A stretch of DNA of 64,000 bases from Escherichia coli (GTDB taxonomy: Bacteria; Pseudomonadota; Gammaproteobacteria; Enterobacterales; Enterobacteriaceae), in the NCBI RefSeq assembly GCF_044324875.1, contig NZ_CP172185.1, one strand, 5' to 3'. Positions 5,541 through 33,831 of this stretch are shown here, piece by piece (the stretch's first letter is position 1; every line of letters begins with the position of its first letter). A program made the translations under genes and the position numbers. A model generated the notes under the pieces. The model was not told the origin of the DNA. It worked only from the letters and a program-made list of their open reading frames with translations, and did not search any database.

Positions 5541-8051
5541 ATGAGCCATCACCACACGCACCTGGCGTACCCGTGGAACGCCCCGCTGCCGGTTATTGAT
5601 CCTGAGACATTCGGCAGAGCATTACCGCAGAAGCCAACCGCATTACAACGGGCAATCCGTGACTACCTCACCGAAGACATTCGCACTGAGGCCCGGCTGG
5701 ATGAAGAAACCGTGGCCTTCCTGACAACCACGGACAAAGGTAAGCAAATTAATTCACACCTTCACCGGGACGAAGAGCGGCAGATAAGGCTGGATAAGCT
5801 GGCACGACACAGACGCGAAAATCCGCCAACGGCGGTATCGGAGGCGATAGCCGAACTTCGCACCCTGCCCTCGTTTCTTGCCAGTGTGTTGATCCGTGAT
5901 CTGGCACGACTGAACCGGAAACAGCAAAGTGCCCGCAGTGAAGGTGTAAAAAACAACAGCGCATACGTGGCCGATAATTTCGTTCGCCGTGGACTGCGTG
6001 CGCGCCTGAAACGTATTGAAAGGGTTAACGACCGCTTTGCAACGCCGGCATTCAAAACCACCGTCGTGCGCCATCGCCTTGAAGAACTGCTCACACTGCC
6101 GCAACTCACCCGTGACGAAATCCAGCGCATCGCCACACTGACAGCCCAGGCATTCGCCGCAGAATTTGAACGCATATGTGATGAAGTTCTTGAACGGACA
6201 GGCAAGGATAATGACAGCCCGGTTATCTGGCTGCTGGCCTACCAGAAGGTGGCACGCACAGCCTTAATTCTGGGCATGGTCCCGCCATACTGGCCGGAAC
6301 TCGAAATCAGGCACAACCGACGCACACCGCCGGACCCTGAACGGGTTCCGGGTGCGGTACTGCGCATCACCTGCGCGACCTGGTGGAACAACCAGTTACG
6401 CCACGTCGCCGATCTCTGGCGGGAGGAGTTACTGCGCGCCGCCGGCAGAGTGTCACGTAAACAATCCCCCTATATCAGCCATGAGTCACTACTGGAGTTC
6501 CGCGAGAAGCGCCAGCGCACCTGTGACTTTCTCAAAAGCTGGGATATTGAAAACGAAGACGGCGAGCGCCTGAGTCTGGAGGACGTGTACTGGGCTGGCC
6601 TGGGTAATCCACGCAACCGCCGCAATGAAATGATGGTCTGCGTCAGAGGGATGGAGATGGTGGCCGAATTACGGGCTGACGTCGCATTCTTCATCACAGT
6701 AACCACCCCTTCCCGCTTTCACAGCGTGAACGAGAACGGCAGCCTGAACCCGAAATACAACGGTGCCACAGTACGAGATGCCAGTGATTATCTGGTTTAC
6801 GACTTCTTCGCAGCCGTAAGAAAAAAAATAAAAAAAGAGGGGCTGGGCTGGTACGGCGTGCGAACCGCTGAGCCACACCATGACGGCACGCCACACTGGC
6901 ATATGCTGGTATTCACTTCCCCGGAGAACGCAGAGCGCATCATCGAAATTATGCGCGAAGCAGCAATTAAATCAGATCGCCACGAACTGGGGGACGATAT
7001 TTCACCGCGCTTTAAATGCGAGAAGATAGACCCGGAAAAAGGCACACCGGCAAGCTATATCGCAACCTATATCGGTAAGAACCTGGACGCCAGCGCTTTC
7101 CACAACAATGATCCGAAAACCGGAAAACCTTACGTTGATGAGGAATCCGGGAAAACCATGGCGGAAACCGTGGAGAACGCCATTGCCTGGGCAAGCCTTC
7201 ACCGCATCCGTCAGTTCCAGTTTTTCGGCATTCCGCCCCGCCAGGTATGGCGTGAACTCCGCCGCCTTGCAAGCCAGATGGAGCGCAACCCGGCATCACC
7301 GAAGCACCTCGATCATGACGATATTGACGCCATTATGGCTGCCGCAGATGTGGGATGTTTTGCCACCTACATCATGAAACAGGGTGGTGTGCTCATTCCG
7401 CGCAACCAGTATCTGGTCCGCACCGCATACGAAACCGCAGACGAAGCCAACGACTACGGTGAATTCCCTCAACGTATCTACGGAATCTGCGCCCCGTCGC
7501 TCGGAGAGCGGTACACCATATGCACCCATCCGGACGAGTGGAAACTGGTTAAAAAAGAAACAATACCAGACAACCGCACGGGCGAGGGTTTTGACCTTCA
7601 GGGCGACCCCGTCGCCCCTTGGACTCGTGGCAATAACTGTCCCCGGGATGAAAAAACAGACAATCACGGACCAGAAAACAGGCAGGACCCCGGACGACTG
7701 ACGCTTCCCGAAGAGAACCTGGAAAGCTGGCTGAATACGTTAAGCAGGGGCGATCGGAGAAAACTGCGTAATCAGATTAAAAATCAGCCGTCGGGCGCAA
7801 AAACCGGACAAAACGACACCACACCGGCATCTGACACCCCTGTAAGGGTGGGGATTGTCGTGCCTGCGGATACCGCGACGGACACGCAAATCGCCCGCGA
7901 ACTTGATGCGCTGGGTGTGCAGTTGCCTGACGCGGCCATCATCTCCGTGCGTAACGGTGCCCGTGTGCGTCTGGATAACGGGGGAACAGCGTACTGGGAT
8001 GAGTCAGCCCGTCACATCATCACAGAGCAGCCAGTGGAGGCGGGAGCATGA
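5541..8051 (+). CDS. A: Replication initiation endonuclease gpA (rolling-circle nickase)
   Basis: 836 aa. HUH-type motif EPHHDGTPHWHMLVF and catalytic Tyr motif SYIATYIGKNL; size and position as P2 A. Confidence 0.9.
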   Translation: MSHHHTHLAYPWNAPLPVIDPETFGRALPQKPTALQRAIRDYLTEDIRTEARLDEETVAFLTTTDKGKQINSHLHRDEERQIRLDKLARHRRENPPTAVSEAIAELRTLPSFLASVLIRDLARLNRKQQSARSEGVKNNSAYVADNFVRRGLRARLKRIERVNDRFATPAFKTTVVRHRLEELLTLPQLTRDEIQRIATLTAQAFAAEFERICDEVLERTGKDNDSPVIWLLAYQKVARTALILGMVPPYWPELEIRHNRRTPPDPERVPGAVLRITCATWWNNQLRHVADLWREELLRAAGRVSRKQSPYISHESLLEFREKRQRTCDFLKSWDIENEDGERLSLEDVYWAGLGNPRNRRNEMMVCVRGMEMVAELRADVAFFITVTTPSRFHSVNENGSLNPKYNGATVRDASDYLVYDFFAAVRKKIKKEGLGWYGVRTAEPHHDGTPHWHMLVFTSPENAERIIEIMREAAIKSDRHELGDDISPRFKCEKIDPEKGTPASYIATYIGKNLDASAFHNNDPKTGKPYVDEESGKTMAETVENAIAWASLHRIRQFQFFGIPPRQVWRELRRLASQMERNPASPKHLDHDDIDAIMAAADVGCFATYIMKQGGVLIPRNQYLVRTAYETADEANDYGEFPQRIYGICAPSLGERYTICTHPDEWKLVKKETIPDNRTGEGFDLQGDPVAPWTRGNNCPRDEKTDNHGPENRQDPGRLTLPEENLESWLNTLSRGDRRKLRNQIKNQPSGAKTGQNDTTPASDTPVRVGIVVPADTATDTQIARELDALGVQLPDAAIISVRNGARVRLDNGGTAYWDESARHIITEQPVEAGA

Positions 8052-8761: not shown

Positions 8762-8860
8762 TGCGTATTCCGCTCTATTCGATCACGGATTGGCATCGAA
8801 GTCCGATCAGCGATTCGCATCCATTCGATCAACCGGGAACTTAACTTTTTCTACCGCTTT

Positions 8861-9616
8861 TTAACGCGTTTTTTCGCTGCTTTCCACTACCGGGGGATTT
8901 TTCCTCAGTGACTCTCCCTGAAGGACCACTCGGTGTGAGTTATGTACCAGTCTGTCCAGGATGGCATCTGCTGTTGTTGGGTTCTCCATCAGACCATGCC
9001 ATTTATCTACCGGGAACTGGCTTACCACTATCGTGCTGCTTTGTCCGTAACGATCCTCTATGAGCTCCAGAAGGTCATTACACTGGGCGTTACTTAACTG
9101 TTCCAGCCCCAGATCGTCCAGGATTAGAACCTGTATTTTTTGCAACTGTTTCAGATATTTCAGCCAGCTGCCATCAACACGTCCCTGAGCCAGTTGTTCC
9201 AGTAATCGCCCGGTTCTACAGTACCGGACGCTGTGTTTCTGTCGACATGCCTGTTCGCCCAGCGCATTGGCTATCCAGCTCTTGCCACATCCTGTCGGAC
9301 CGGTTATCAGCAGGTTTTTCCTGTGGGTTATGTAGTGGCCGTTCAGCAGTTCTCTCATCTGTTCAGCCCGCAGACCTCTTGAGGCCGGATAGCGCAGCCC
9401 TTCCGGTGTTGCCTGGTATTTCAGGCCGGCATTTTTTCTCAACCGTGCCACACGGCTGTTTTCCCTGCTCAGAAGCTCGTCATCAACCAGCAGCGTCAGC
9501 CTTTCCTCGAACGACAGTTCGTCGTAGGTCTGAGGCGTTTCCCGCTGCCGTATCAGGCTCCCGGCCATCGCCGGGAGTTTCAGTTGGGTCAGTTTGTTTA
9601 ACAGGTTATCACTCAT
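8861..9616 (-). CDS. istB: IS21-family helper ATPase IstB
   Basis: 251 aa from ATG 9616 (AAGGAA RBS); Walker A GPTGCGKSW; DnaA/IstB-like. Confidence 0.85.
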   Translation of the reverse strand: MSDNLLNKLTQLKLPAMAGSLIRQRETPQTYDELSFEERLTLLVDDELLSRENSRVARLRKNAGLKYQATPEGLRYPASRGLRAEQMRELLNGHYITHRKNLLITGPTGCGKSWIANALGEQACRQKHSVRYCRTGRLLEQLAQGRVDGSWLKYLKQLQKIQVLILDDLGLEQLSNAQCNDLLELIEDRYGQSSTIVVSQFPVDKWHGLMENPTTADAILDRLVHNSHRVVLQGESLRKNPPVVESSEKTR

Positions 9617-9632
9617 ACTGTTGTTCCTTCTG

Positions 9633-11168
9633 TCAGTGGTAGTAGCCCGGACCACGCAGGTTTTCATGCTCTGAAGCATATGCCGGATGTTGTTCGCCCT
9701 GGCGGGATAATGGAAGCTCCAGGTTCTCCCGATGGTGACGCAGCAGATTGTCGATAAAGCGTCTGTCAGGGGCGTTATAGTGCAGGGCAACGTAACAGGC
9801 CTTTTCCAGCCGTTCCGGGCCGTATTTTTTCTGAAGTGCCAGCAGCCCCAGAACTGCACGATAAGCCAGTTCCGGATGGGGTTTTGCCTTCAGCATGGAT
9901 TCAACCACCCGGCCTGTGGACGGGCCCGTACGTTTTCCCTGCTCGATCAGGCGTTCCGGTGTCCATGTCCCGTGCTGCCGGTGGCGCTCTGGCATGTGAA
10001 GCGGATTGGTTGTGTGTTTATATTCATGTGTGCTGCGCGGATGTTGCGCCACACACTGCCCCTTGTGCCAGAGCTGTACCACCGACTGCCCCGCCTTCAG
10101 TGACAGACGCTGACCGACCAGTTCGTGTGGAACGGAGTACCAGTGACGGGCATATTCAACGTGGTAGTCAGGGCCAACCTTCACAGCTTTGTATTCCGTG
10201 TATTCATAAGGTGCCAGAGGCAGCGGAGAGAGTGCTGGCGCATCCAGTATGCGGAAGCGTTCTGCACGGGTTTGATTGCCGTACCCCTTCATTGGCCGGT
10301 TATTCATGTCTGTCAGTAACTCCCTAAGGCGCGCATTCAGCGCCCTGAGCGTGTGGAAGGTTTCATTACGGATGCGGGCAAGAAGCCATCGTTCAACGAT
10401 GAGGACGCCGTTTTCTGCTTTTGGTTTATCTTTAGGTTTGCGTGGTCGGGCCGGGATGATAACCGTGCCATAGTGCTCAGCCAGTGCCTGATAACTGTCG
10501 TTGATGACAGGCTCATATCGATCGGCCTTTTTCACTGCGCTTCTGAGGTTATCGGGGATGAGCAGCTTCGGTACGCCGCCCAGGAAGGTCAGGCAACGGC
10601 TGTGGGCATTTAACCATGACATCATGTCCTGACCTTCGCACGCTTCAACGTAGGTATAGTTGGACGCCCCCATTACGGCCACGAAGATTGCCACGCGGCG
10701 TATCTCACCGGTGTCCGGATTAATAACAGGAACCGTAGGACCACAGAAGTCGATAAAAAGCTTTTCGCCGGCACGATGCTCCTGGCGCATGGAGAGACGT
10801 CGCGTTTTTTTCCACTCCCGGTAGCAACGGCAGAAGTGCGAGTATCCCATCGCTTTGTTACCCGCCTGTGCCTTGTATTCCATCCACAACAGTTGCCGCG
10901 TCACACCTGGTTTTCTCATTTCCGTATCGAAGTACAACATGTCAGGCATTACAAGCTCTGATGCAAAGGTGTCTTTGGGCGGAAAAATGAGTTTCTCCAG
11001 CGTGTCATGGGATATATCAGCAGGTAATGGCCATGACAGAGAAGAGGCTTTGAAGCGGGCAAGAACCTCAAAAACGGTTGAGGCGCTGATGTGTAACGTC
11101 AGTCCGATACAACGGTTAGTCAGCTTCTTGTCGAACTTGAGCTGAAGGATCTTAAAACAGGTTTCCAT
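9633..11168 (-). CDS. istA: IS21-family transposase IstA
   Basis: 511 aa from ATG 11168 (AGGAG RBS). N-terminal HTH and DDE core (FIDF ... IPDN ... KAENGV). Confidence 0.85.
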   Translation of the reverse strand: METCFKILQLKFDKKLTNRCIGLTLHISASTVFEVLARFKASSLSWPLPADISHDTLEKLIFPPKDTFASELVMPDMLYFDTEMRKPGVTRQLLWMEYKAQAGNKAMGYSHFCRCYREWKKTRRLSMRQEHRAGEKLFIDFCGPTVPVINPDTGEIRRVAIFVAVMGASNYTYVEACEGQDMMSWLNAHSRCLTFLGGVPKLLIPDNLRSAVKKADRYEPVINDSYQALAEHYGTVIIPARPRKPKDKPKAENGVLIVERWLLARIRNETFHTLRALNARLRELLTDMNNRPMKGYGNQTRAERFRILDAPALSPLPLAPYEYTEYKAVKVGPDYHVEYARHWYSVPHELVGQRLSLKAGQSVVQLWHKGQCVAQHPRSTHEYKHTTNPLHMPERHRQHGTWTPERLIEQGKRTGPSTGRVVESMLKAKPHPELAYRAVLGLLALQKKYGPERLEKACYVALHYNAPDRRFIDNLLRHHRENLELPLSRQGEQHPAYASEHENLRGPGYYH

Positions 11169-11406
11169 AGTGCTCCTGGATTTTCTCTTTCTGGACATTG
11201 ACGTCTCCACTGGTTTAAACACGGCAATGGAGACTGTGGTGAAAAGAGTTAATTCCCGGAGTGACTGGCAGGATGCCAATCAATGATCGGAAGCATGCCA
11301 AATCGTGATCGATTGTGATGCCAAACTGTGATCGGAGATGGATGCCAAATCATGATCGATTCGAATGCCAAACTGCGATCGATTCAGATGCCATTTTGCA
11401 TCAGTC

Positions 11407-11641
11407 ATCAGATATTCCATTCGGAATGGATATCAACGACGCCTGTATGCTCCAGGTATACCGCATAGCTCAGGCTGCACTACAGGCAAAACCGTCAGAT
11501 GGACTGGTTAGAGCAGTACGTTTCTATGAACTGGTAAAGCGTGAGAATCCGCCAGTCGAAACCGGAGCATGGCAAGACGCTGTTGACTGGGTGCTCAAAG
11601 AGGCTTGTCAGGTTGTAAACACTGGCATCAAAGGAGACTGA
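11407..11641 (+). pseudogene. 3' part of the IS-split phage ORF
   Basis: Removing the IS and one TCAGTC copy joins ...VESQS to SDIPFGMDINDACMLQVYRIA... in frame. Confidence 0.7.
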
Positions 11642-11642
11642 T

Positions 11643-11852
11643 ATGGCTATTGCCGCAAGTTACACCATGCATCTCTATTGTGATTGTCGCCAGTGTACAA
11701 ATGGTAAATATCAAACGCCAGACTTCGGTGAATATATCGGTACGTCATGGACTGGCTGTGCAAAAGAGGCGCGTAAGGATGGCTGGCGAATAAGCAAAGA
11801 CAAAACTCGTGCTTTTGCGCCCGGGCATAAAGTTTTGAGGATTAACAAATGA
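11643..11852 (+). CDS. Hypothetical Cys-rich small protein
   Basis: 69 aa, GGAGA RBS, motif CDCRQC. Confidence 0.45.
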   Translation: MAIAASYTMHLYCDCRQCTNGKYQTPDFGEYIGTSWTGCAKEARKDGWRISKDKTRAFAPGHKVLRINK

Positions 11853-12250
11853 CCACTATAACCAAAGAGCGACTACTGACAATCAGGCAGTGGCGCGAAA
11901 CATACGGACCTGGTAGCAACGTTGTACTGCCAGCCGAAGAAGCGGAAAAACTGGCACGGATTGCTTTGGCATCGCTGGAAGCAAAACCAATAGGTGCTTT
12001 CCACATTGCAGAACAGCAGGTCGATGGCACAAGTGACTACATCAAGGATGGGGAGTACCGCTTGCTGACATCTGAAGAACAAAAGATAGCCCAACTTTTA
12101 GGCGATGCATGGAACCTGTATTTTACATTGCCAGTTGAGCATCCAATGGGTAGAGATGAATTTTGCCGGGCAATTCATCATTGCCAAAATATGGTGTTGG
12201 CACGCCCTGCCATCAGGGCGCTGGCCAGTAAGGGGCAAGGCTATAAATAG
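11849..12250 (+). CDS. Hypothetical accessory protein
   Basis: 133 aa, ATGA overlap with the upstream gene. Confidence 0.45.
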   Translation: MTTITKERLLTIRQWRETYGPGSNVVLPAEEAEKLARIALASLEAKPIGAFHIAEQQVDGTSDYIKDGEYRLLTSEEQKIAQLLGDAWNLYFTLPVEHPMGRDEFCRAIHHCQNMVLARPAIRALASKGQGYK

Positions 12251-12258
12251 ATGAGCAA

Positions 12259-12285
12259 AACGCCCTCCTCCAGGGCGTTTATTTC
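12259..12285 (+). terminator. Intrinsic terminator after the accessory operon
   Basis: AACGCCCT-cctcc-AGGGCGTT followed by a T-rich tail. Confidence 0.55.
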
Positions 12286-12287
12286 AA

Positions 12288-12314
12288 TGCACAATAGTGC
12301 ACAAATTTGCACAA
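12288..12314. repeat. Three TGCACAA direct repeats at exact 10-bp phasing
   Basis: TGCACAA at 12288, 12298 and 12308. Confidence 0.6.
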
Positions 12315-12409
12315 TTTTTTTGAACGACTTTTTGCCCTTCCGGCCCGTGTGGCGTCTGGATCCGTCGGGGATCCGTGCGTGCACGAAAAAAGGCCTTTTT
12401 CTGCGCGCA

Positions 12410-12428
12410 GGTGACGGGGGAACAGCCC
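12410..12428. other. Candidate cos (cohesive-end) site, tentative
   Basis: GGTGACGGGGGAACAGCCC resembles the P2/186 19-nt ends GGCGAGGCGGGGAAAGCAC / GGCGTGGCGGGGAAAGCAT as I remember them. It lies in a 290-bp non-coding stretch on the portal-proximal side. Confidence 0.3.
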
Positions 12429-12741
12429 GCGTTTCAGGGGGTAAATAGCATTCCCTGAACGATGTTGCAGTGACACAACAGAATGGCTGTATTTCTCACG
12501 CTGAGCGTGAAAAAGACGTAAGGGCTTTTGATTTGATGGGGTGAAAGATAAGGCCGTCAAAATCGCACTGAGGCAGCGAGAATATGTCGTCAGAGTTGCG
12601 GGGTTGCGTAAGCATCCGCCCGGCGATGATGGCTACAGGGCTGGAGATGTTGTGAAATTATCTGAAGGAATAACCAGCTTGCAGGAGAACCCGGGCAAAG
12701 TCAGAATAGCGGCAGGCATCAACTCAAAAGAGGATAATGTC

Positions 12742-13245
12742 ATGAGCCACTTTAATGATTTATGCCAGATCAATCGTGAAGCTGAAGAAAAACGCGCTGA
12801 GGCAGCTCAAATTTTGCGGGATGAAGCGGCAAGGCTGATTGATTTCTATGAAGAATGGCTGGGGCTTCCATCCATGTACTGGGAAGACGATGATGGCGAC
12901 CTGCACCGCTACGTGGAGACAGGCTTGCCATGTAAGACAGCGGCGGATTTTAGTCCTCTTTCAGTCCACAATATCGCATCTGCACCAGACAATATTTTCC
13001 GCATGGCCGTGCGAACCTGGGTTAAGTCATCTGACAGCAGCTACCCGGTAAGCGTGGTTATTGCACTTGAATTATATTCAGTAGATGCGGAACGGGTGTC
13101 TCTGAGAGTCCGGGTGGAAGACGATATTTCTGTTCGCGTATTTATCAATAAACCCAGCGAAGAAGCCTGGGGCGATGTTGTTATGCACATGAAAAAGCAC
13201 ATCGCTAATCACCTGAAAAAGCGAGCGCCATCAGCACTTCGTTAA
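12742..13245 (+). CDS. Hypothetical 167-aa protein between the candidate cos site and portal gene Q (frame open from GTG 12541)
   Basis: ATG 12742 preceded by AAGAGGA. No recognisable domain. Convergent with Q. Confidence 0.5.
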   Translation: MSHFNDLCQINREAEEKRAEAAQILRDEAARLIDFYEEWLGLPSMYWEDDDGDLHRYVETGLPCKTAADFSPLSVHNIASAPDNIFRMAVRTWVKSSDSSYPVSVVIALELYSVDAERVSLRVRVEDDISVRVFINKPSEEAWGDVVMHMKKHIANHLKKRAPSALR

Positions 13246-13260
13246 GCAGAGCTGGAGAGT

Positions 13261-13285
13261 CGGGGCATAAATTTTTTATGCCCCG
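13261..13285. terminator. Bidirectional hairpin between convergent genes
   Basis: CGGGGCATAAATTTTTTATGCCCCG. Confidence 0.5.
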
Positions 13286-13311
13286 GCGAAGCAGCAGACA
13301 AGCGAAGCGCG

Positions 13312-14367
13312 TCAGGATATGGGCTGGGTGTCTAACAGTGCGTAAGGGTTAAAACGGATCACCTCTTCGCCCAGCCAGTCGTTGACGTGTTTCATTGCTT
13401 CCATGACGGGCATCAGTTCGTTAATGGCAAACACACGGGCTGCCTTCTCCACATCCCCGAATGACCCCTTCTCACCCGGCATGGCCCCCATCAGCTGCGG
13501 CGGTACACGGTGCACGGACAGCACATCATCACGCGATGCAGCCTTGACGTTCATGAACTCATCCTTTGCGGTGATTTGCTGAAACGGCAAAATCTGTACG
13601 CCATCCTTACCACCTCCCGCCGCGTGGATGAGCAGATTTTTAAACGCCCCGCCACCACGCGCGCTTTGCAGTGTTTCCCGCAGTTTTTCCATGCTTTCAC
13701 GGTCAACCTGCGCCGCACCGATGTAGACAATACAGCCCGCGTGTGAGCCGTTATCGTAGTAGAGCTTGCGGAAGATATCGGCGGAATGTGACAGGCTGGC
13801 AGACAGCAGGCCGCCCAGGTAATCCGGCATCCCGTAAATCTCCTGGTTGATATCAGGATTCATCAGGTGGCATATCGTCCCCTCACGAAAGCGGTACTCT
13901 TCCTGTCCTTCCTGTATATACCACCATGATTTCATATCGCTGCCACGTCGCATGTATTTCGCCAGCGCCCGGCGCAGGGCCAGCGGTTCGCCAAGCATGT
14001 TGCGCCGCAGCTCAAGACAGGCATTACCGAACACAAACCAGTCCATCGCCACCCCGGCGAACTCCTGGCGGGACAGCAGAGGATGTGGAATATAGCAGCC
14101 CAGCAGCACATTACGTTTGAAGCTGAGCGCCGACTGGTGCCAGGACGTCTGGCGGGCAGCCCGTGCCAGTCCGTACCAGTCAACGGGCGTTTCAAACCAC
14201 CGCCCGTTGTCGGCGCAGTACATGCTGTCCAGCAGGTCGGCCCCTGACAGCCGGTAAGGTCCTTCAAACGTGAAGGCACTCAGTGTCGGGTCGCTTCGCA
14301 GGGAATCCGCAAGGCTGCCCTGCGCTGCGCGGGCGTTCGTACGTCGTTGTTTATTTTTTCTGCTCAT
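13312..14367 (-). CDS. Q: Portal protein gpQ
   Basis: 351 aa; size, position and orientation as P2 Q, adjacent to terminase P. Confidence 0.85.
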   Translation of the reverse strand: MSRKNKQRRTNARAAQGSLADSLRSDPTLSAFTFEGPYRLSGADLLDSMYCADNGRWFETPVDWYGLARAARQTSWHQSALSFKRNVLLGCYIPHPLLSRQEFAGVAMDWFVFGNACLELRRNMLGEPLALRRALAKYMRRGSDMKSWWYIQEGQEEYRFREGTICHLMNPDINQEIYGMPDYLGGLLSASLSHSADIFRKLYYDNGSHAGCIVYIGAAQVDRESMEKLRETLQSARGGGAFKNLLIHAAGGGKDGVQILPFQQITAKDEFMNVKAASRDDVLSVHRVPPQLMGAMPGEKGSFGDVEKAARVFAINELMPVMEAMKHVNDWLGEEVIRFNPYALLDTQPIS

Positions 14368-16118
14368 CAGAACTCCGTAACACTGAAGGGGGCGGCATCA
14401 TGTTCACCGCCGACAGGTTCGTTGATAACGGCCAGCATGGTGGCCCATGCAAGATCGCCATGGCTTACGCCTCTTGCGCGATCTGTTTCGTAGGTGATAA
14501 ATCCGGCCTGCGTTTTTGTTTTGCGTACCGCGTTAAAGGCGCTCACCAGTTCGCGCTCGCTGCGGTCGTACTCCCACCGCCCGGCGCGCATGAGCTGCAG
14601 CATCTTCAGAACCAGCGTGCGCTTTGATGACAGGGTGAAGGTGTAGGGAATGGCTGCCGGAAAAAAGCGCTTCACAATCTGATACACCGCATCCCCGTGA
14701 CCGCCGGTTACGTCAATACCGATATGCTCAACGTTATAGCGAAAGGTGAACTCTTCAATCACCTTCGCCTGCGCCTCAAACTCCAGCCCCTGCACCCGCC
14801 GCGTCTCCACGGTGCGAAAACGCCCGCCCGGTACGGCTGGCGGCACCACCACGACAACCGCCCCGCTGTCACCGTTCCCGCTACTGCCGTTGGCGTCGTA
14901 CCCAATCCACACAGGGCGGTTCCCCATCGGACGCGGTGCAAACGGCTTCCAGTCCGGCCACTCGTCGTATCCGTCAACACCGCAGCCAATCAGGATATTC
15001 AGGTTAAATGCCGATTCCCCTTCGCGAGCAAATTCACACATGTAGAGATTGCGGAACTCGTCTTCAGTGTTATTGCGCCGGATTTTGTCAATGTTGGTTA
15101 ACGTCCATCCCTGACTGACCACATCTTCCAGCGTCACAATTTGCCGCCAGATATAGTCAGGACAGATAAGGCCGTTATGAAGCGCATTCCAGCTCACATC
15201 AAAATGCTGACGTTTATGAGTACGAAGCCCTTCATTCCAGTGATCGCCGTTCCAGTATGCATACGCCTCATGTGTTTCACTTGATGGCGTGGAAAAATAG
15301 GTACACCGCAAACCATCCAGCGTTGCCATAGCAGCAGCCACCTTGCGCAGCTCTGCGAAACGCCCCGTCCAGAAAAACTCATCAAAATACAGATTCCCTG
15401 TGTACGCTTGCGCGGTGGCCGCAGAAGTGCCGAGAAAATGCAGCTCTGCACCGTTGGAGAGGATGACTTTATCGCCCCCTTTCAGTTCCACATCAACTTC
15501 AGATGCAGCCTTCTGAATAATGCTTTTAAACTGGAGCGCCTGACGACGAGACGCAGACAAAAAAATCTGGTTACGCTGGTAAGGTTGTGCCACATCGTCA
15601 CGCAGCGCCATCAGCAGCGCTTCCTGCGCAAAATACCAGGTCGCCCCAATCTGGCGGGATTTCAGGATCATCCTGTCAGTAATTCCGGCACGCTCACAGG
15701 CACCGATAGCATCAAGCCATTTGCGCTGGTGTCCGGCCAGCCTGTCGGTAATTTTTTCCCGCAGCGCCGCGATCTGTTCCGGCGTGAAATGATTTTTGCG
15801 TTTTTTCGCCCGGCCTTTCTTTCCTGTTGCCGTCTCATCCGGCAGACCGTCATGCAGCTTTTTAAGCTGACGGGTCAGCAAATCAATTTCCTTAAAGTCC
15901 CCGCCTGTTTTATTCTGTTTTTCCGTGAGCTGAATGAGTCGCGCATCCATGGACTGCGTGACACGCTGAACCGGGGGCGTCTCATCCCACTGGTCGCGTT
16001 TTTTCCACGAATGGATCGTGTTCTGGTTGATACCCATAAGGCGGGAAATTTCCGCAACAGGGTAACCCTGCCAGTACAGCTGGCGTGCCCGCTGGCGAAC
16101 AAATGTATCCTGAATCAT
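14367..16118 (-). CDS. P: Terminase large (ATPase) subunit gpP
   Basis: 583 aa with N-terminal HTH-like region; matches P2 P in size and position. Confidence 0.85.
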   Translation of the reverse strand: MIQDTFVRQRARQLYWQGYPVAEISRLMGINQNTIHSWKKRDQWDETPPVQRVTQSMDARLIQLTEKQNKTGGDFKEIDLLTRQLKKLHDGLPDETATGKKGRAKKRKNHFTPEQIAALREKITDRLAGHQRKWLDAIGACERAGITDRMILKSRQIGATWYFAQEALLMALRDDVAQPYQRNQIFLSASRRQALQFKSIIQKAASEVDVELKGGDKVILSNGAELHFLGTSAATAQAYTGNLYFDEFFWTGRFAELRKVAAAMATLDGLRCTYFSTPSSETHEAYAYWNGDHWNEGLRTHKRQHFDVSWNALHNGLICPDYIWRQIVTLEDVVSQGWTLTNIDKIRRNNTEDEFRNLYMCEFAREGESAFNLNILIGCGVDGYDEWPDWKPFAPRPMGNRPVWIGYDANGSSGNGDSGAVVVVVPPAVPGGRFRTVETRRVQGLEFEAQAKVIEEFTFRYNVEHIGIDVTGGHGDAVYQIVKRFFPAAIPYTFTLSSKRTLVLKMLQLMRAGRWEYDRSERELVSAFNAVRKTKTQAGFITYETDRARGVSHGDLAWATMLAVINEPVGGEHDAAPFSVTEF

Positions 16119-18279: not shown

Positions 18280-19062
18280 ATGCTGACACCGGCACAGGCT
18301 CATTTCCAGCGCGTGATGGCTTTACGGGCAGGAACGGCAGCAGAAAACGAGGATATCGTGGCCCGCACGGCTCATGAGCAGGTCCTTCACCGTCTGCGCC
18401 TGGCACAGCAACGCATAAAGGGCGTCCAGGCAAAAGCGGCAAAGGCCGCGCTCAAGCGTGAAATGCTGCCGGGTTTTGCAGGCTGGATAGACGGCACGCT
18501 GGAAGCCGACGGCGGACAGCAGGATGAGGTGATAGCCACACTCATGGTGTGGGCCGTGGACTGTGGCGACCTGGCGCTTGCACTGCGCATCGGGGATTAT
18601 GTGGTTCGCCACAACCTCACGATGCCTGACAACTTCGGGCGTACGGCAGCCACGGTACTGACCGAGGAAATCTGCAACCCTGTTCTGACACAGGCCGGAA
18701 CGGATGCACACGCCGATTTGTCCGGCTACATCGAACCGCTGGACACCCTCTGGCAAATTGTCGCGAACCGGGACATGCCCGATGAGGTCCGCGCCAAGCT
18801 GTGCAAGGCATGCGCCTTTGCCCGTCGTGGCCTGACCGATGCCGACAGCATGGCGGTGAGTCTGAAGCTGTTCCGTGAGGCAATGCACCTTAACCCGAAT
18901 GCGGGGGTAAAACGTGAGATTGCCACGCTTTCACGGGCCCTGAAAAAGGCCGGACAGGATGAAGCCGCTGCCGCACAGGAGCCTGCGGCACAGAAAGATA
19001 CAACCAGAGAACAGACCACGACGCCGAAGGCGAAAGCGAAAGCGAAGGCGAAACGTGGTTAA
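18280..19062 (+). CDS. M: Terminase small/endonuclease subunit gpM
   Basis: 260 aa, position after N. Confidence 0.8.
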   Translation: MLTPAQAHFQRVMALRAGTAAENEDIVARTAHEQVLHRLRLAQQRIKGVQAKAAKAALKREMLPGFAGWIDGTLEADGGQQDEVIATLMVWAVDCGDLALALRIGDYVVRHNLTMPDNFGRTAATVLTEEICNPVLTQAGTDAHADLSGYIEPLDTLWQIVANRDMPDEVRAKLCKACAFARRGLTDADSMAVSLKLFREAMHLNPNAGVKREIATLSRALKKAGQDEAAAAQEPAAQKDTTREQTTTPKAKAKAKAKRG

Positions 19063-24738: not shown

Positions 24739-26973
24739 ATGAGCACGAGAAAATTCAGAACCCTTATCACCGACATCGGGCTGGCAAAGCTGGCCGCAAC
24801 AACGGCGCCTGGCGGTAGACCTGTACGCCTTACGCACATGGCTGTAGGGGACGGCAATGGAGAGCTTCGTCAGCCGCAGAAAAACCAGACATCGCTTTAC
24901 AATGAGGTTTGGCGCCAGTCTGTCAACCGCGTCTTCACCGACCCGGAGAACCCGAACCGCCTCATCGCCGAACTGGTCATTCCTCCTGAAACCGGCGGAT
25001 TCTGGGTGCGTGAAATTGGTGTGTTTGATGATACAGGTACAATGATTGCAGTAGGAAATACCGCTGAAAGTTACAAGCCCACCAGAGAGGAAGGTTCAGG
25101 GCGGGCGCAGATATTCCGTGCAGTAATCACCGTCACCTCCGACGCCGTGGTGGAACTGGTCATGGACACAACAACAATTCTGCCGACCACGGACTACATT
25201 GATGAGAAAATGGCGGAACACGCACGTTCCCGTAACCACCCTGACGCGACACTGACAGAAAAAGGATTCACCCAACTGAGCAGCGCCACAAACAGCACCT
25301 CTGAAACACTGGCCGCCACACCGAAGGCCGTCAAGGCTGCATATGACCTTGCAGCCGGTAAAGCACCCGCCAGCCACACCCACCCGTGGAATCAGATAAC
25401 TGGTGTGCCATCAGCCTCGCTGACGGCAAAAGGCACCGTACAGCTGAGCAGTGCCACAAACAGTGAGTCAGAGACTGAGGCGGCCACCCCCAAAGCGGTT
25501 AAAGCCTTACACGATATGGTGACGAGCAAGTATACAGGACAGGATGCAACCACCGGACGCAAAGGCATCGTACAGCTGAGCAGCGCCACAAACAGCAATT
25601 CCGAAACACTGGCGGCCACACCGAAGGCAGTAAGTGATGCACTGAGCATGGCGTTCGTGAAGCCAACAACATCCCTGGGGGAAACAGACCTGAACACTCT
25701 GGGGCGTAAGGAAGACGCGGGAGATTATTACCAGCAGAGTGACTCAGGTGCGAGAACAGACAGAAACTATCCTGTAGAGAAGGCAGGAGAGTTACGCATC
25801 CGTGTTGGTGCATGGGGATTCTGCCAGCATGAATACACGAGCTGGGATCCGCCACGAAAATTTATCAGGACAGTTACCGGAAACTTTAACGGTAACGGCC
25901 CATGGTCAGAGTGGGTGGAGGTGACAAACACAGATGCAACAACTGGACGCAAAGGCATCGTACAGCTGAGCAGCGATACAAACAGCAATTCCGAAACGCT
26001 GGCGGCCACACCAAGAGCCGTCAAGGCTGCATATGACCTTGCAGCCGGTAAAGCACCCGCCAGCCACACCCACCCGTGGAATCAGATAACAGGTGTGCCA
26101 TCAGCCTCGCTGACGGCAAAAGGCACCGTACAGCTGAGCAGTGCCACAAACAGTGAGTCAGAGACTGAGGCCGCCACCCCCAAAGCGGTTAAAGCCTTAC
26201 ACGATATGCTGACGAGCAAGTATACAGGACAGGATGCAACCACCGGACGCAAAGGCATCGTACAGCTAAGCAGCGCCACAAACAGCAATTCCGAAACGCT
26301 GGCGGCCACACCAAAAGCTGTTAAAGCTGCGTATGACCTTGCCAACAGCAAAGCCTCGGCAGCCCACACTCATCGCTGGGCTCAGATCACAGACGCCCCT
26401 GTTTTTTCGTCTGTTGCCCGCGTCATCATGGGTAAACAAAGCATAAAAGATATTCTTGATTACTTTGGTTTAGGAGAAGGCTCGACGCTGCCAGTTGGCG
26501 TACCCGTTCCGTGGCCTTCGTCAAGACCACCTGAGGGGTGGTTACAGTGCAACGGTGCCGCATTCACGCGTACAAAATACCCAAAACTGGCGGTGGCCTA
26601 CCCTGACCTCAGGCTACCAGATTTGCGCGGGGAATTTATTCGTGGATGGGATGACCTGCGAATGATTGACAGGGGACGCTTATTGTTATCCACACAGGAA
26701 GCAACATATATTTGTACCGCCATACAGGCGTACCACGGCGTAGCGGGAGGTGCAGATATTCAGGCAGGGATTTCATTTGCATCACATGATAACGACATCA
26801 TAAACATAACCCCTGATCAACCCAGAACCGGTAACGGCATCCTGTACGGCACAAAACCAGTTGACAGATGGGCAATAGCCAGAGCCGGTAAGCTGGTGAG
26901 TAATGAAAAAGACAGATGGATAGCGATCAGACCGCGCAATATCGCTTTTAATTATATTGTGAGGGCAGTTTAA
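24739..26973 (+). CDS. H: Tail fibre protein gpH with seven tail-fibre repeat motifs
   Basis: 744 aa. N-terminus MSTRKFRTLITDIGLAKLAATTAPGG parallels P2 H. Motif SSATNSxSETxAATPKAVKA occurs 7 times. Confidence 0.85.
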   Translation: MSTRKFRTLITDIGLAKLAATTAPGGRPVRLTHMAVGDGNGELRQPQKNQTSLYNEVWRQSVNRVFTDPENPNRLIAELVIPPETGGFWVREIGVFDDTGTMIAVGNTAESYKPTREEGSGRAQIFRAVITVTSDAVVELVMDTTTILPTTDYIDEKMAEHARSRNHPDATLTEKGFTQLSSATNSTSETLAATPKAVKAAYDLAAGKAPASHTHPWNQITGVPSASLTAKGTVQLSSATNSESETEAATPKAVKALHDMVTSKYTGQDATTGRKGIVQLSSATNSNSETLAATPKAVSDALSMAFVKPTTSLGETDLNTLGRKEDAGDYYQQSDSGARTDRNYPVEKAGELRIRVGAWGFCQHEYTSWDPPRKFIRTVTGNFNGNGPWSEWVEVTNTDATTGRKGIVQLSSDTNSNSETLAATPRAVKAAYDLAAGKAPASHTHPWNQITGVPSASLTAKGTVQLSSATNSESETEAATPKAVKALHDMLTSKYTGQDATTGRKGIVQLSSATNSNSETLAATPKAVKAAYDLANSKASAAHTHRWAQITDAPVFSSVARVIMGKQSIKDILDYFGLGEGSTLPVGVPVPWPSSRPPEGWLQCNGAAFTRTKYPKLAVAYPDLRLPDLRGEFIRGWDDLRMIDRGRLLLSTQEATYICTAIQAYHGVAGGADIQAGISFASHDNDIINITPDQPRTGNGILYGTKPVDRWAIARAGKLVSNEKDRWIAIRPRNIAFNYIVRAV
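25328..25622 (+). repeat. Intragenic direct repeat copy 1 (295 bp, about 98 percent identical to copy 2)
   Basis: Same sequence recurs 690 bp downstream with about 5 substitutions. Confidence 0.85.
26018..26312 (+). repeat. Intragenic direct repeat copy 2
   Basis: See copy 1. Confidence 0.85.
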
Positions 26974-32548: not shown

Positions 32549-33831
32549 TAAGCACCTCCAAGCGTCGCAAATGCAGGACCAAAGAATTCATCAGTAAACG
32601 TCTGGTAAAGTTCCATATCCTCAAGCGGCGGAACGGGCGTGTACTTGTAGCGGATACGCACGCGTCCCTGACGAAGTTCCGTGGTGCTGTTATCCACCAC
32701 GTCATACCAGCACTCCGCACCAACGAGACGTCCTGACGTAACCAGCGCATCCAGTTTTGCGCGAATTGCGCTTAACACGTCTTTCACATTAGCAGGGGTC
32801 AGCGGGGCATCAATCGTTTCAAACTGCGCTTCCGCAATGGAATCAGCCAGCACCTGAGCGGTTCGCGTGTACACCTCAAAGATATACGCCTTCGTTTCCG
32901 GCGTACGGTTGCCCCAGAAGCGGAAACCGTTACGGCAAATGATGGTAGTGATTTCCTTGTTGTTGAGATTGTTGGCATCGCTGTCTTCGGACTGAAGGGA
33001 CCAGAACACCGGGCTGGAAATACCCAGCACATTTCTTACCGGCACGTTGGACAGCGATTTATGCCAGCCCTGTTCGTGGTCAATACGTGCACGTAAACCG
33101 CAGGCGTACGCCGCAGCCGGGAAGACCTCATTAGCGCCGGATTTCGGGTTATGGGCGATGAAGTCCGGCCAGACCAGCATAAGTTCGCGCTCGTTAAATC
33201 TGGCGCGGTAGCTGATTGCATCGGCGGGCTTCTTGCAGTTGTGACAGCCCGCGTAGACAAATGCGCGAAGTTTTTCTGCAATTACACACAGGGATTTTGT
33301 GACAGCTTCAGTATCCAGTCCGGGCGCTGCGATGATGCGCGGACGGTAACCGATGGCATCATCCTGTTCAGCTATCAGAAGTGCATACATACCGGTATAA
33401 TTACCGTCGCCATCCGTGCCACCAATGACATACTGGTCCTGCGTTTTGTGTGGGTATACAGGATGTGCATCTTCAGACTCATCAATACCAAAAAATGCCC
33501 TGTCTTCAGGATCCAGATGACCGAATGATGTAACTCCTGTATCCGGGGCGCCCTGAGAACTGGCATCAGGAACGCGCACCACAATCACCTTCGTGCTCAC
33601 CTGGTCGGCGACAGCCTTAAGCGATTTGTAAAGCGTCCCCTTTGTGCCGGCCTTACCCAGCACATCACTGACGCGGGTCAGCAGTGTGGGTTTGTTCAGC
33701 GGGAACAGAGTTTCATCCGCGTCATCTGCCGTAGCCACAATACCAATAACACTGGAATCCACATCATTAATGGCGGTGGCAAGGCCGGTACTTTCCCTTA
33801 CGCGCGCACCATGAAAGCGTGTTTCACTCAT
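32548..33831 (-). CDS. FI: Contractile tail sheath protein gpFI
   Basis: 427 aa from ATG 33831. MSETRFHGARV...TADDADETLFPLNKPTLLT parallels P2 FI. Confidence 0.85.
   Translation of the reverse strand: MSETRFHGARVRESTGLATAINDVDSSVIGIVATADDADETLFPLNKPTLLTRVSDVLGKAGTKGTLYKSLKAVADQVSTKVIVVRVPDASSQGAPDTGVTSFGHLDPEDRAFFGIDESEDAHPVYPHKTQDQYVIGGTDGDGNYTGMYALLIAEQDDAIGYRPRIIAAPGLDTEAVTKSLCVIAEKLRAFVYAGCHNCKKPADAISYRARFNERELMLVWPDFIAHNPKSGANEVFPAAAYACGLRARIDHEQGWHKSLSNVPVRNVLGISSPVFWSLQSEDSDANNLNNKEITTIICRNGFRFWGNRTPETKAYIFEVYTRTAQVLADSIAEAQFETIDAPLTPANVKDVLSAIRAKLDALVTSGRLVGAECWYDVVDNSTTELRQGRVRIRYKYTPVPPLEDMELYQTFTDEFFGPAFATLGGA

Follow-up and report, generated by a model that had tools for sequence, protein, structure and literature searches.

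A P2-like prophage of the P88 type (genus Xuanwuvirus, Peduoviridae) lies in a 64,000-nucleotide (nt) stretch of the Escherichia coli contig NZ_CP172185.1 (assembly GCF_044324875.1), referred to below as the window. In this study we analysed the junction between the accessory region of this prophage and its portal gene Q, which carries a candidate packaging site (cos) and, between cos and Q, a 583-bp inserted module containing a gene for a protein of 167 amino acids (aa). The right edge of the site is formed by Q itself (13312-14367, minus strand), a 351-aa open reading frame (ORF) annotated as "phage portal protein" in near-identical genomes. It is followed by gene P, encoding the large terminase subunit gpP (14367-16118, minus strand), while the scaffold, capsid and small terminase (gpM, 18280-19062) genes beyond P are on the plus strand, and near-identical E. 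coli genomes are annotated alike. Left of the site, the prophage carries the replication gene A (5541-8051) and a few small accessory ORFs, together with an insertion of the IS21 family of insertion sequences (IS). With Q and P on the right, and A and the accessory ORFs on the left, the gene order is therefore that of the P2 circular junction (right-arm accessory genes, cos, Q).

Anatomy of the candidate cos region

The rightward accessory operon (ORFs within 11315-12250) is closed by an intrinsic terminator on the plus strand at 12258-12284, composed of a 9-bp perfect stem (AAACGCCCT/AGGGCGTTT, at 12258-12266 and 12272-12280) followed by ATTT (fold energy -15.2 kcal/mol, z -3.7). A terminator is found at the equivalent spot before cos in 186 and P4. 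It is followed on the same strand by three TGCACAA repeats with an exact spacing of 10 bp (12288-12314; copies at 12288, 12298 and 12308), and this phased triple was matched once in the window and never in 100 shuffled sequences. Further to the right are two GGATCCGT direct repeats placed 11 bp apart (12358-12365 and 12369-12376), and then a segment (12380-12410) containing a proximal TGCACGA motif, an A-run and the palindromes AAAAAGGCCTTTTT (12387-12400) and CTGCGCGCAG (12401-12410). The candidate 19-nt cohesive end, GGTGACGGGGGAACAGCCC, occupies 12410-12428, with an uncertainty of the cut of about 2 nt on its left side and about 3 nt on its right side. Aligned without gaps, it is identical to the P2 cohesive end (GGCGAGGCGGGGAAAGCAC) at 13 of the 19 positions; a resemblance to P2-family ends had been noted in an earlier annotation made from the nucleotide sequence (the sequence-only reading). 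The same annotation had correctly placed the phased triple; its terminator (12259-12285), direct repeats (12349-12377) and palindrome (12386-12400) were all found, at the slightly different coordinates given above, and the second palindrome is an addition to it.

The candidate cos is placed between the right-arm accessory region and Q, with its G-rich strand opposite the coding strand of Q. On its Q side follows a conserved plus-strand spacer that is common to phage P88 (12429-12665) and includes a reading frame open from 12541; over positions 12236-12665 the window and P88 are 88% identical.

E. coli relatives (L018) share the GGATCCGT repeats. The Salmonella, Edwardsiella and L015 relatives carry instead a GGCGCGGTCTGAG-like sequence, which also occurs in P4. 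These repeats are lineage-specific and probably not among the core elements of cos. The block TGCTGCGCGCAGGTGACGGGGGA(A/C)CA is conserved between loci of E. coli, Salmonella and Edwardsiella that have otherwise diverged in their flanks. A 20-mer probe including the candidate end detected 120 IMG/VR loci, and wherever Q was visible the probe sequence had a single orientation towards it.

Comparison with the mapped cos sites of P2, 186 and P4

It is known that the cos sites of P2, 186 and P4 generate 19-nt 5' cohesive ends (Ziermann and Calendar 1990, cited in PMC9122126 and PMC5694545). For comparison, the circular junctions of these three elements were reconstructed from their mapped ends. Beyond the cut as seen from Q, they have a common layout: three TGCAT motifs about 100-125 nt from the cut, then a TGCAT at 29 nt, followed by an A-rich stretch, a GC hairpin and the 19-nt end. 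In the window the corresponding TGCAC motif precedes the 19-mer by 30 nt. Counted from the first base of the end, the TGCAT copies of P2, 186 and P4 are located at -123/-124, -111, -101 and -29, and the TGCACAA motifs of the window (anchored at 12410) at -122, -112, -102 and -30, i.e. the offsets agree within 1-2 bp. Eight relatives from several genera, some of them without one or two of the distal copies, carry TGCACAA at -123, -113, -103 and -31, while an Edwardsiella relative (L011, L124) has TGAACAA at three of the four positions (-113, -103 and -31). Such a concerted change is expected if one protein reads all of the sites, and it suggests co-evolution of the motif with this protein.

The cos regions were also compared by global alignment over positions -135 to +30, tested against dinucleotide shuffles. 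In the comparison with P4 the window reached z 4.5 and its Salmonella relative z 7.6, and in the comparison with 186 the respective values were 3.3 and 4.2. In these alignments the candidate 19-mer coincides with the mapped ends of P4 and 186. The window site resembles the cos of P2, 186 and P4 in its position and orientation (between the right-arm accessory genes and Q) and in the order of its elements. It differs from them in the sequence of the repeat (TGCACAA instead of TGCAT) and in the distance to Q, since the cos-Q gap is about 310 bp long in P88-type phages with an empty gap and 168 bp in P2. The latter value, measured from the 19-nt end to the stop codon of Q, replaces the approximately 100 bp quoted for P2 in the sequence-only reading. 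A further difference is that the ends of P2, 186 and P4 have been mapped experimentally, while the window cos is predicted from its sequence.

Several observations weigh against the placement of cos at this site. Of the 19 positions of the candidate end, 6 do not agree with the P2 end, and the GCGCGC palindrome, which precedes the 19-mer in the window, follows it in P2. The alignment of the window cos with that of P2 itself is weak (z 2.0). We found no published mapping of virion ends for P88-type phages, and within the phage record collection no record begins at the candidate end. Among the loci fetched there was no P4-like satellite with a cos of the window type, and the scan of genome contigs yielded only 4 loci, all portal-adjacent.

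The starts of two phage records, P884B11 (corresponding to window position 12333) and 500465-2 (about 12157), were considered as possible ends and rejected, as they look like arbitrary or prophage-derived break points.

It could be argued that the cohesive ends lie elsewhere, for instance next to Q (13246-13311, the alternative named in the sequence-only reading), and that the features at 12288-12428 are operators or a promoter region of the accessory genes. The ends of P88-type phages are predicted ones, the 13/19 match to P2 is incomplete, and the TGCAT repeats of P2 are situated close to an old promoter region (transcript starts 33424-33426), which makes a regulatory role conceivable. However, the region 13246-13311 contains a strong hairpin at the position of P2 tQ, at the 3' end of Q, and has no G-rich 19-mer. 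Moreover, the geometry of the repeats is common to P2, 186 and P4 even though their neighbouring genes differ, and no other part of the region is as well conserved between genera as the core block. We therefore regard a location elsewhere as highly improbable.

We conclude from these comparisons that the predicted cos lies at about 12288-12430, as the sequence-only reading had proposed (about 12.4 kb), that it is homologous to and collinear with the cos sites of P2, 186 and P4, in the same orientation towards Q, and that its left nick is expected within about 2 nt of 12410. In the proposed mechanism, gpM would bind the TGCACAA repeats, three of which are phased one helical turn apart and one of which is located 30 nt from the cut. 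Subsequently, gpP would introduce staggered nicks at 12410-12428 (to within about 2 nt), leaving the 19-nt 5' cohesive end GGTGACGGGGGAACAGCCC, and packaging would then proceed as in P2.

The same type of cos core was also observed in less familiar surroundings. Two IMG/VR contigs of 27-29 kb (L050 and L088) have this core with only two, adjacent, TGCACAA motifs (-40 and -30), and here it adjoins an ORF encoding an Ogr/Delta-like zinc finger and a portal gene whose product is 29.6% identical to Q. These contigs may represent a different phage lineage, or a satellite-like element, with the same cos type. In another IMG/VR locus (L115) the core is not followed by a portal gene, and a tail-chaperone-like ORF and a weak Delta/Ogr-like match are found close by; this is probably a rearranged or decayed prophage.

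The module inserted between cos and Q

The homology with P88 stops at 12665 and resumes at 13249, and the intervening 583-bp module (a moron, 12666-13248, plus strand) replaces 9 bp of P88. Imperfect short direct repeats are present at its junctions (AGCTTGCAGGAG at 12676-12687 and AGCTGGAGAG at 13250-13259). The module contains the 167-aa gene (12742-13245, plus strand), with the ATG start codon at 12742, the stop codon at 13243-13245 and a ribosome-binding site, GAGGA, at 12730-12734 (7 nt before the ATG). As stated in the sequence-only reading, this gene is convergent with Q, and its frame is open from upstream, namely from a GTG at 12541 (234 aa). Between the two genes, within P88-homologous sequence, there is a hairpin (13259-13287) that has no uridine tract (U-tract) and is shared by both as their downstream structure. 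For the plus strand a fold energy of -31.5 kcal/mol (z -5.4) is predicted, and for the minus strand one of -24 kcal/mol (z -3.8); in position the hairpin corresponds to P2 tQ. A search of Rfam with the hairpin gave only a sub-threshold match to gyrA, which was taken as due to chance.

The 167-aa gene is real and, judging from its substitution pattern, under purifying selection: the ratio of nonsynonymous to synonymous substitution rates (dN/dS) in pairwise comparisons of the E. coli and Salmonella alleles is 0.07-0.20, while in comparisons with the Edwardsiella allele synonymous substitutions have reached saturation. The open upstream frame raises the question of a longer product, of 213 aa (from TTG 12604) or 234 aa (from GTG 12541), whose extension would lie in P88-derived sequence. 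Automatic annotations include such forms, since the NCBI pipeline PGAP calls products of 213, 236 and 197 aa in different strains and the JGI annotation gives 234 aa (P0001), and one homologue (P0003) has a 21-aa extension resembling the upstream translation of the window. However, the PHROG profile to which the protein belongs (PHROG 5091, see below) and all 30 aligned relatives begin at the Met encoded by ATG 12742, which is preceded by the GAGGA sequence. In the Edwardsiella allele, an in-frame TAA occurs four codons before the start, and an E. coli allele (L136) annotated as 167 aa is without 107 bp of the supposed N-terminal extension. Taken together, the common Met, the ribosome-binding site, the Edwardsiella stop codon and the L136 deletion indicate that the annotated forms of 213-236 aa are over-extensions into the P88-derived spacer, and a longer gene appears very improbable.

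As regards expression, the only candidate is a weak sigma-70 promoter on the plus strand, TTGCAG-N17-CAGAAT (12679-12707), which is below the threshold of our scan. It has counterparts in the Salmonella (TTGCAG-N17-CAAAAT) and Edwardsiella (TTGCTG-N17-CACAAT) alleles and is deleted in the E. coli allele L136. The Ogr-type late-promoter dyad TGT-N12-ACA was not found when the sequence upstream of the gene was inspected.

To determine how often the gap is occupied, we used 109 IMG/VR loci in which both cos and the C-terminus of Q are visible. The gap is empty (250-312 bp) in 89 of them, contains a gene for a 174-aa distant homologue (the sister allele) in 17, and the window-type gene in 3. Among 5,426 complete E. 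coli genomes, the cos region was found in 1,150, the 167-aa gene in 31 and the sister allele in 397; one of the two alleles is thus present at the cos-Q site in about 8% of the genomes. P88, an induced lytic phage (PMC6456863), does not carry the 167-aa gene, and neither do other isolated relatives, which indirectly suggests that the gene is dispensable for lytic growth. Being absent from P88 and from about 80% of relatives, it is an optional gene and not a conserved packaging gene. The proposal of the sequence-only reading that the gene is cargo is therefore supported.

In E. coli NRZ14408 (L007) and in NZ_LT599825 the 167-aa gene is split by ISEc12 (IS21-like) after approximately codon 32. 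Hence the prophage can persist when this gene is lost.

The sister allele (WP_000236495) is related to the window protein over a conserved core (BLASTP E 2e-8). It was observed at loci L018 and L048, at 15 other IMG/VR loci and in E. coli M1/5 (L151:4001-4525). Its module is located on the Q side of the hairpin and has its own U-tract terminator, while that of the window is on the cos side. The two modules, on opposite sides of the hairpin, thus represent independent insertions of members of one family into the same gap. The sister allele is also present in four isolated phages (vB_EcoM-705R2, vB_EcoM-569R5, PhiR44_2 and a P88-like record), in which it is annotated as hypothetical.

It has been reported that the cos-Q gap is a spot where P2-like phages acquire foreign genes (PMC5694545, citing Dodd and Egan 1996 for retrons and Nakayama 1999 for phiCTX), and that the whole gpA-gpQ region is a defence hotspot of P2 (PMC9122126, PMC9519451, PMC13586616). 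Known cargo of cos-gpQ sites includes ctx of phiCTX, the retrons Ec67 and Ec86 in 186-like prophages, and ORF1-4 of phiRSY1 (for the hotspot, see Rousset et al. 2022 and Vassallo et al. 2022). The insert of the window resembles this cargo in being an optional gene with conserved flanks and a presence/absence polymorphism. In contrast to the diverse cargo of the known sites, in the sample that we probed the window-type gap contained only one family, represented by two deeply diverged alleles at two insertion points. In the available text of Table S5 of Rousset et al., WP_000236495 appears 167 times, as the last "hypothetical" gene before gpQ. It does not occur in the corresponding text of their other supplementary files, nor in that of the table of tested systems, and the exact accessions of the window allele do not occur in that of Table S5. 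As far as these texts show, no defence activity is known for the sister allele or for PHROG 5091. The site and the kind of insert are thus already known, and nothing in our results overturns current understanding.

Relatives of the 167-aa protein provide a further view of the distribution of this family. Alleles with 68-75% identity (Edwardsiella, Salmonella) are found in the same cos-Q gap of P2-like prophages. A relative with 24% identity is encoded between the antiterminator gene Q and the holin gene of a lambdoid prophage, and another relative upstream of a terS gene. The sites occupied by the relatives are classic moron positions, and no neighbouring gene constantly accompanies the family, which therefore seems to act alone.

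The strain E. coli TUM9803 (NZ_CP135671) has four copies of the 167-aa gene on one chromosome, presumably each in a P88-like prophage of its own; of these four sites, one was inspected. The prophage of the window was also compared with the near-identical one of TUM9803. An IS21-family element is present in the accessory region between A and cos (8762-11400; istA 9633-11279 and istB 8861-9859, both on the minus strand). The TUM9803 prophage does not contain it, and its flanks overlap by 6 bp, which fits a target-site duplication. A segment of 330 bp (11906-12235) is absent from the TUM9803 copy; its presence in the window leaves the 133-aa ORF at 11849-12250 (PHROG 13916/60) intact, and in NRZ14408 and ECCNB12-2 a truncated pseudogene is annotated in the place of this ORF. 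In addition, off-diagonal BLAST matches to the TUM9803 tail-fibre gene revealed several internal DNA repeats (25250-26400) in the tail-fibre gene of the window (24739-26973).

The PHROG 5091 protein and its possible role

The sequence-only reading recognised no domain in the 167-aa protein. This was confirmed with respect to Pfam, NCBIfam, PADLOC and the sequences of the PDB, but the protein belongs to PHROG 5091, a family with no assigned function, whose profile it matches over the full length (E 3.1e-52; residues 1-166 against positions 2-163 of 164) and which was matched by all 31 aligned relatives. The distant relatives likewise gave no Pfam, NCBIfam, PADLOC or PDB sequence match, a tblastn search of 50,697 phage records with the 167-aa protein yielded no match, and an exhaustive profile search of 1.84 billion representatives returned only 31 proteins at E <= 0.001, mostly of 143-210 aa. 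By hhalign the protein is unrelated to P2 Tin (probability 0.2%) and to 186 Orf97. Our literature search found no paper naming PHROG 5091 or its accessions. The family shares the motif Y..SL.LP...W.D..G....YV..G, with invariant L40, W47, Y57 and G61, and its members are soluble and mildly acidic (median isoelectric point 5.4), without a membrane segment.

An AlphaFold2 model built from 30 sequences is confident (predicted local distance difference test score, pLDDT, 90.5; predicted template modelling score, pTM, 0.85), and comprises an N-terminal helix of 38 residues, an antiparallel sheet and a helix at the C-terminus. The model shares a two-layer alpha/beta sandwich with the actin-capping protein beta subunit, the FP domain of PI31/Fbxo7 and type III secretion chaperones, in which an antiparallel sheet packs against two helices, a long N-terminal one and a C-terminal one.

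In the sample probed, the cos-Q gap is occupied by a single protein family, whose two deeply diverged alleles were inserted at different points. This, and the location of other relatives next to terS, might indicate an accessory factor of packaging or head assembly that is tied to cos or to the portal. Such a role seems improbable, as about 80% of close relatives, the viable phage P88 among them, do not have the gene, relatives of the protein are also found between the lambdoid antiterminator Q and holin genes and apparently beyond a cos-like region, and the protein has no similarity to known packaging proteins.

In view of its optional occurrence, the purifying selection on its gene, its predicted fold, its hotspot location and the lack of a constant partner gene, our best guess is that the 167-aa protein acts by non-enzymatic binding in conflicts between phages or between phage and host. 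The absence of a catalytic motif and of a membrane segment, together with the location in the gpA-gpQ hotspot, makes binding of another protein in such a conflict the role that we think most likely. A precedent is provided by P2 Tin, a non-enzymatic exclusion protein that acts by binding its target protein. Tin resembles the 167-aa protein in being a single accessory protein of the cos-proximal hotspot without an enzymatic domain. It differs from it in being encoded on the other side of cos and in the opposite orientation, in its size, and in the lack of any sequence relationship. Exclusion of, or defence against, other phages in the manner of Tin may tentatively be put forward as the function, while another kind of modulation of the host or of a phage is possible but doubtful.

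An alternative within the same general frame is counter-defence, i.e. that the protein is an inhibitor binding an immune protein of the host or of a prophage and has no defence or exclusion activity of its own. A small, soluble, mildly acidic and non-enzymatic protein would suit this purpose, some relatives occupy late-transcribed positions in lambdoid prophages, four copies coexist in one polylysogen, and no defence model is matched; nevertheless, we consider counter-defence as such rather unlikely.

Some of our results do not favour a defensive cargo module next to cos. The PADLOC-DB v2 models of known defence systems gave no hit with the protein at E up to 1. The sigma-70 scan detected no plus-strand promoter for the gene, and none of the sequences in front of it is convincing as a promoter. 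The four gene copies in TUM9803 argue against exclusion of phages of its own kind. Finally, the gene for a relative with 38% identity, although situated in the gpA-gpQ region, is apparently separated from Q by a cos-like sequence, so that the association with the cos-Q gap is not absolute.

At the latter locus (L139:6495-7070) the gene is followed by a cos-like region with TGCAC/TGCAT repeats and a G-rich block, GGGGAGGTGTGTGGGGGATCGC, and then by a 125-aa gene preceding Q. This arrangement implies that the PHROG 5091 family is not confined to the Q side of cos.

Considering all of the above, we regard it as probable that the prophage of the window has its cos at about 12288-12430, followed by a cargo module (12666-13248) that encodes a conflict-related binding protein. 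A bolder proposal, which we offer with reserve, is that PHROG 5091 represents a so far unrecognised single-protein conflict factor (anti-phage exclusion or counter-defence), having a fold without a solved relative and carried by P2-like phages next to cos and by other temperate phages at moron positions. More speculatively, the preference for cos- and portal-proximal sites might reflect a role against packaging hijackers such as P4-like satellites.

The comparison of cos sites provides a prediction of the packaging site, at a resolution of about 2 nt, for the P88-type (Xuanwuvirus) phages, a group harboured by about a fifth of the complete E. coli genomes (1150/5426). The shift of the motif from TGCAT to TGCACAA and TGAACAA between lineages points to a recognition code of the small terminase, and such a code bears on the question of which satellites a helper phage can package. 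The cargo gene family, for its part, is widespread, under apparent purifying selection and endowed with a confidently modelled but unmatched fold, and it is listed as "hypothetical" in the hotspot tables. These traits make it a reasonable candidate for defence and anti-defence screens.

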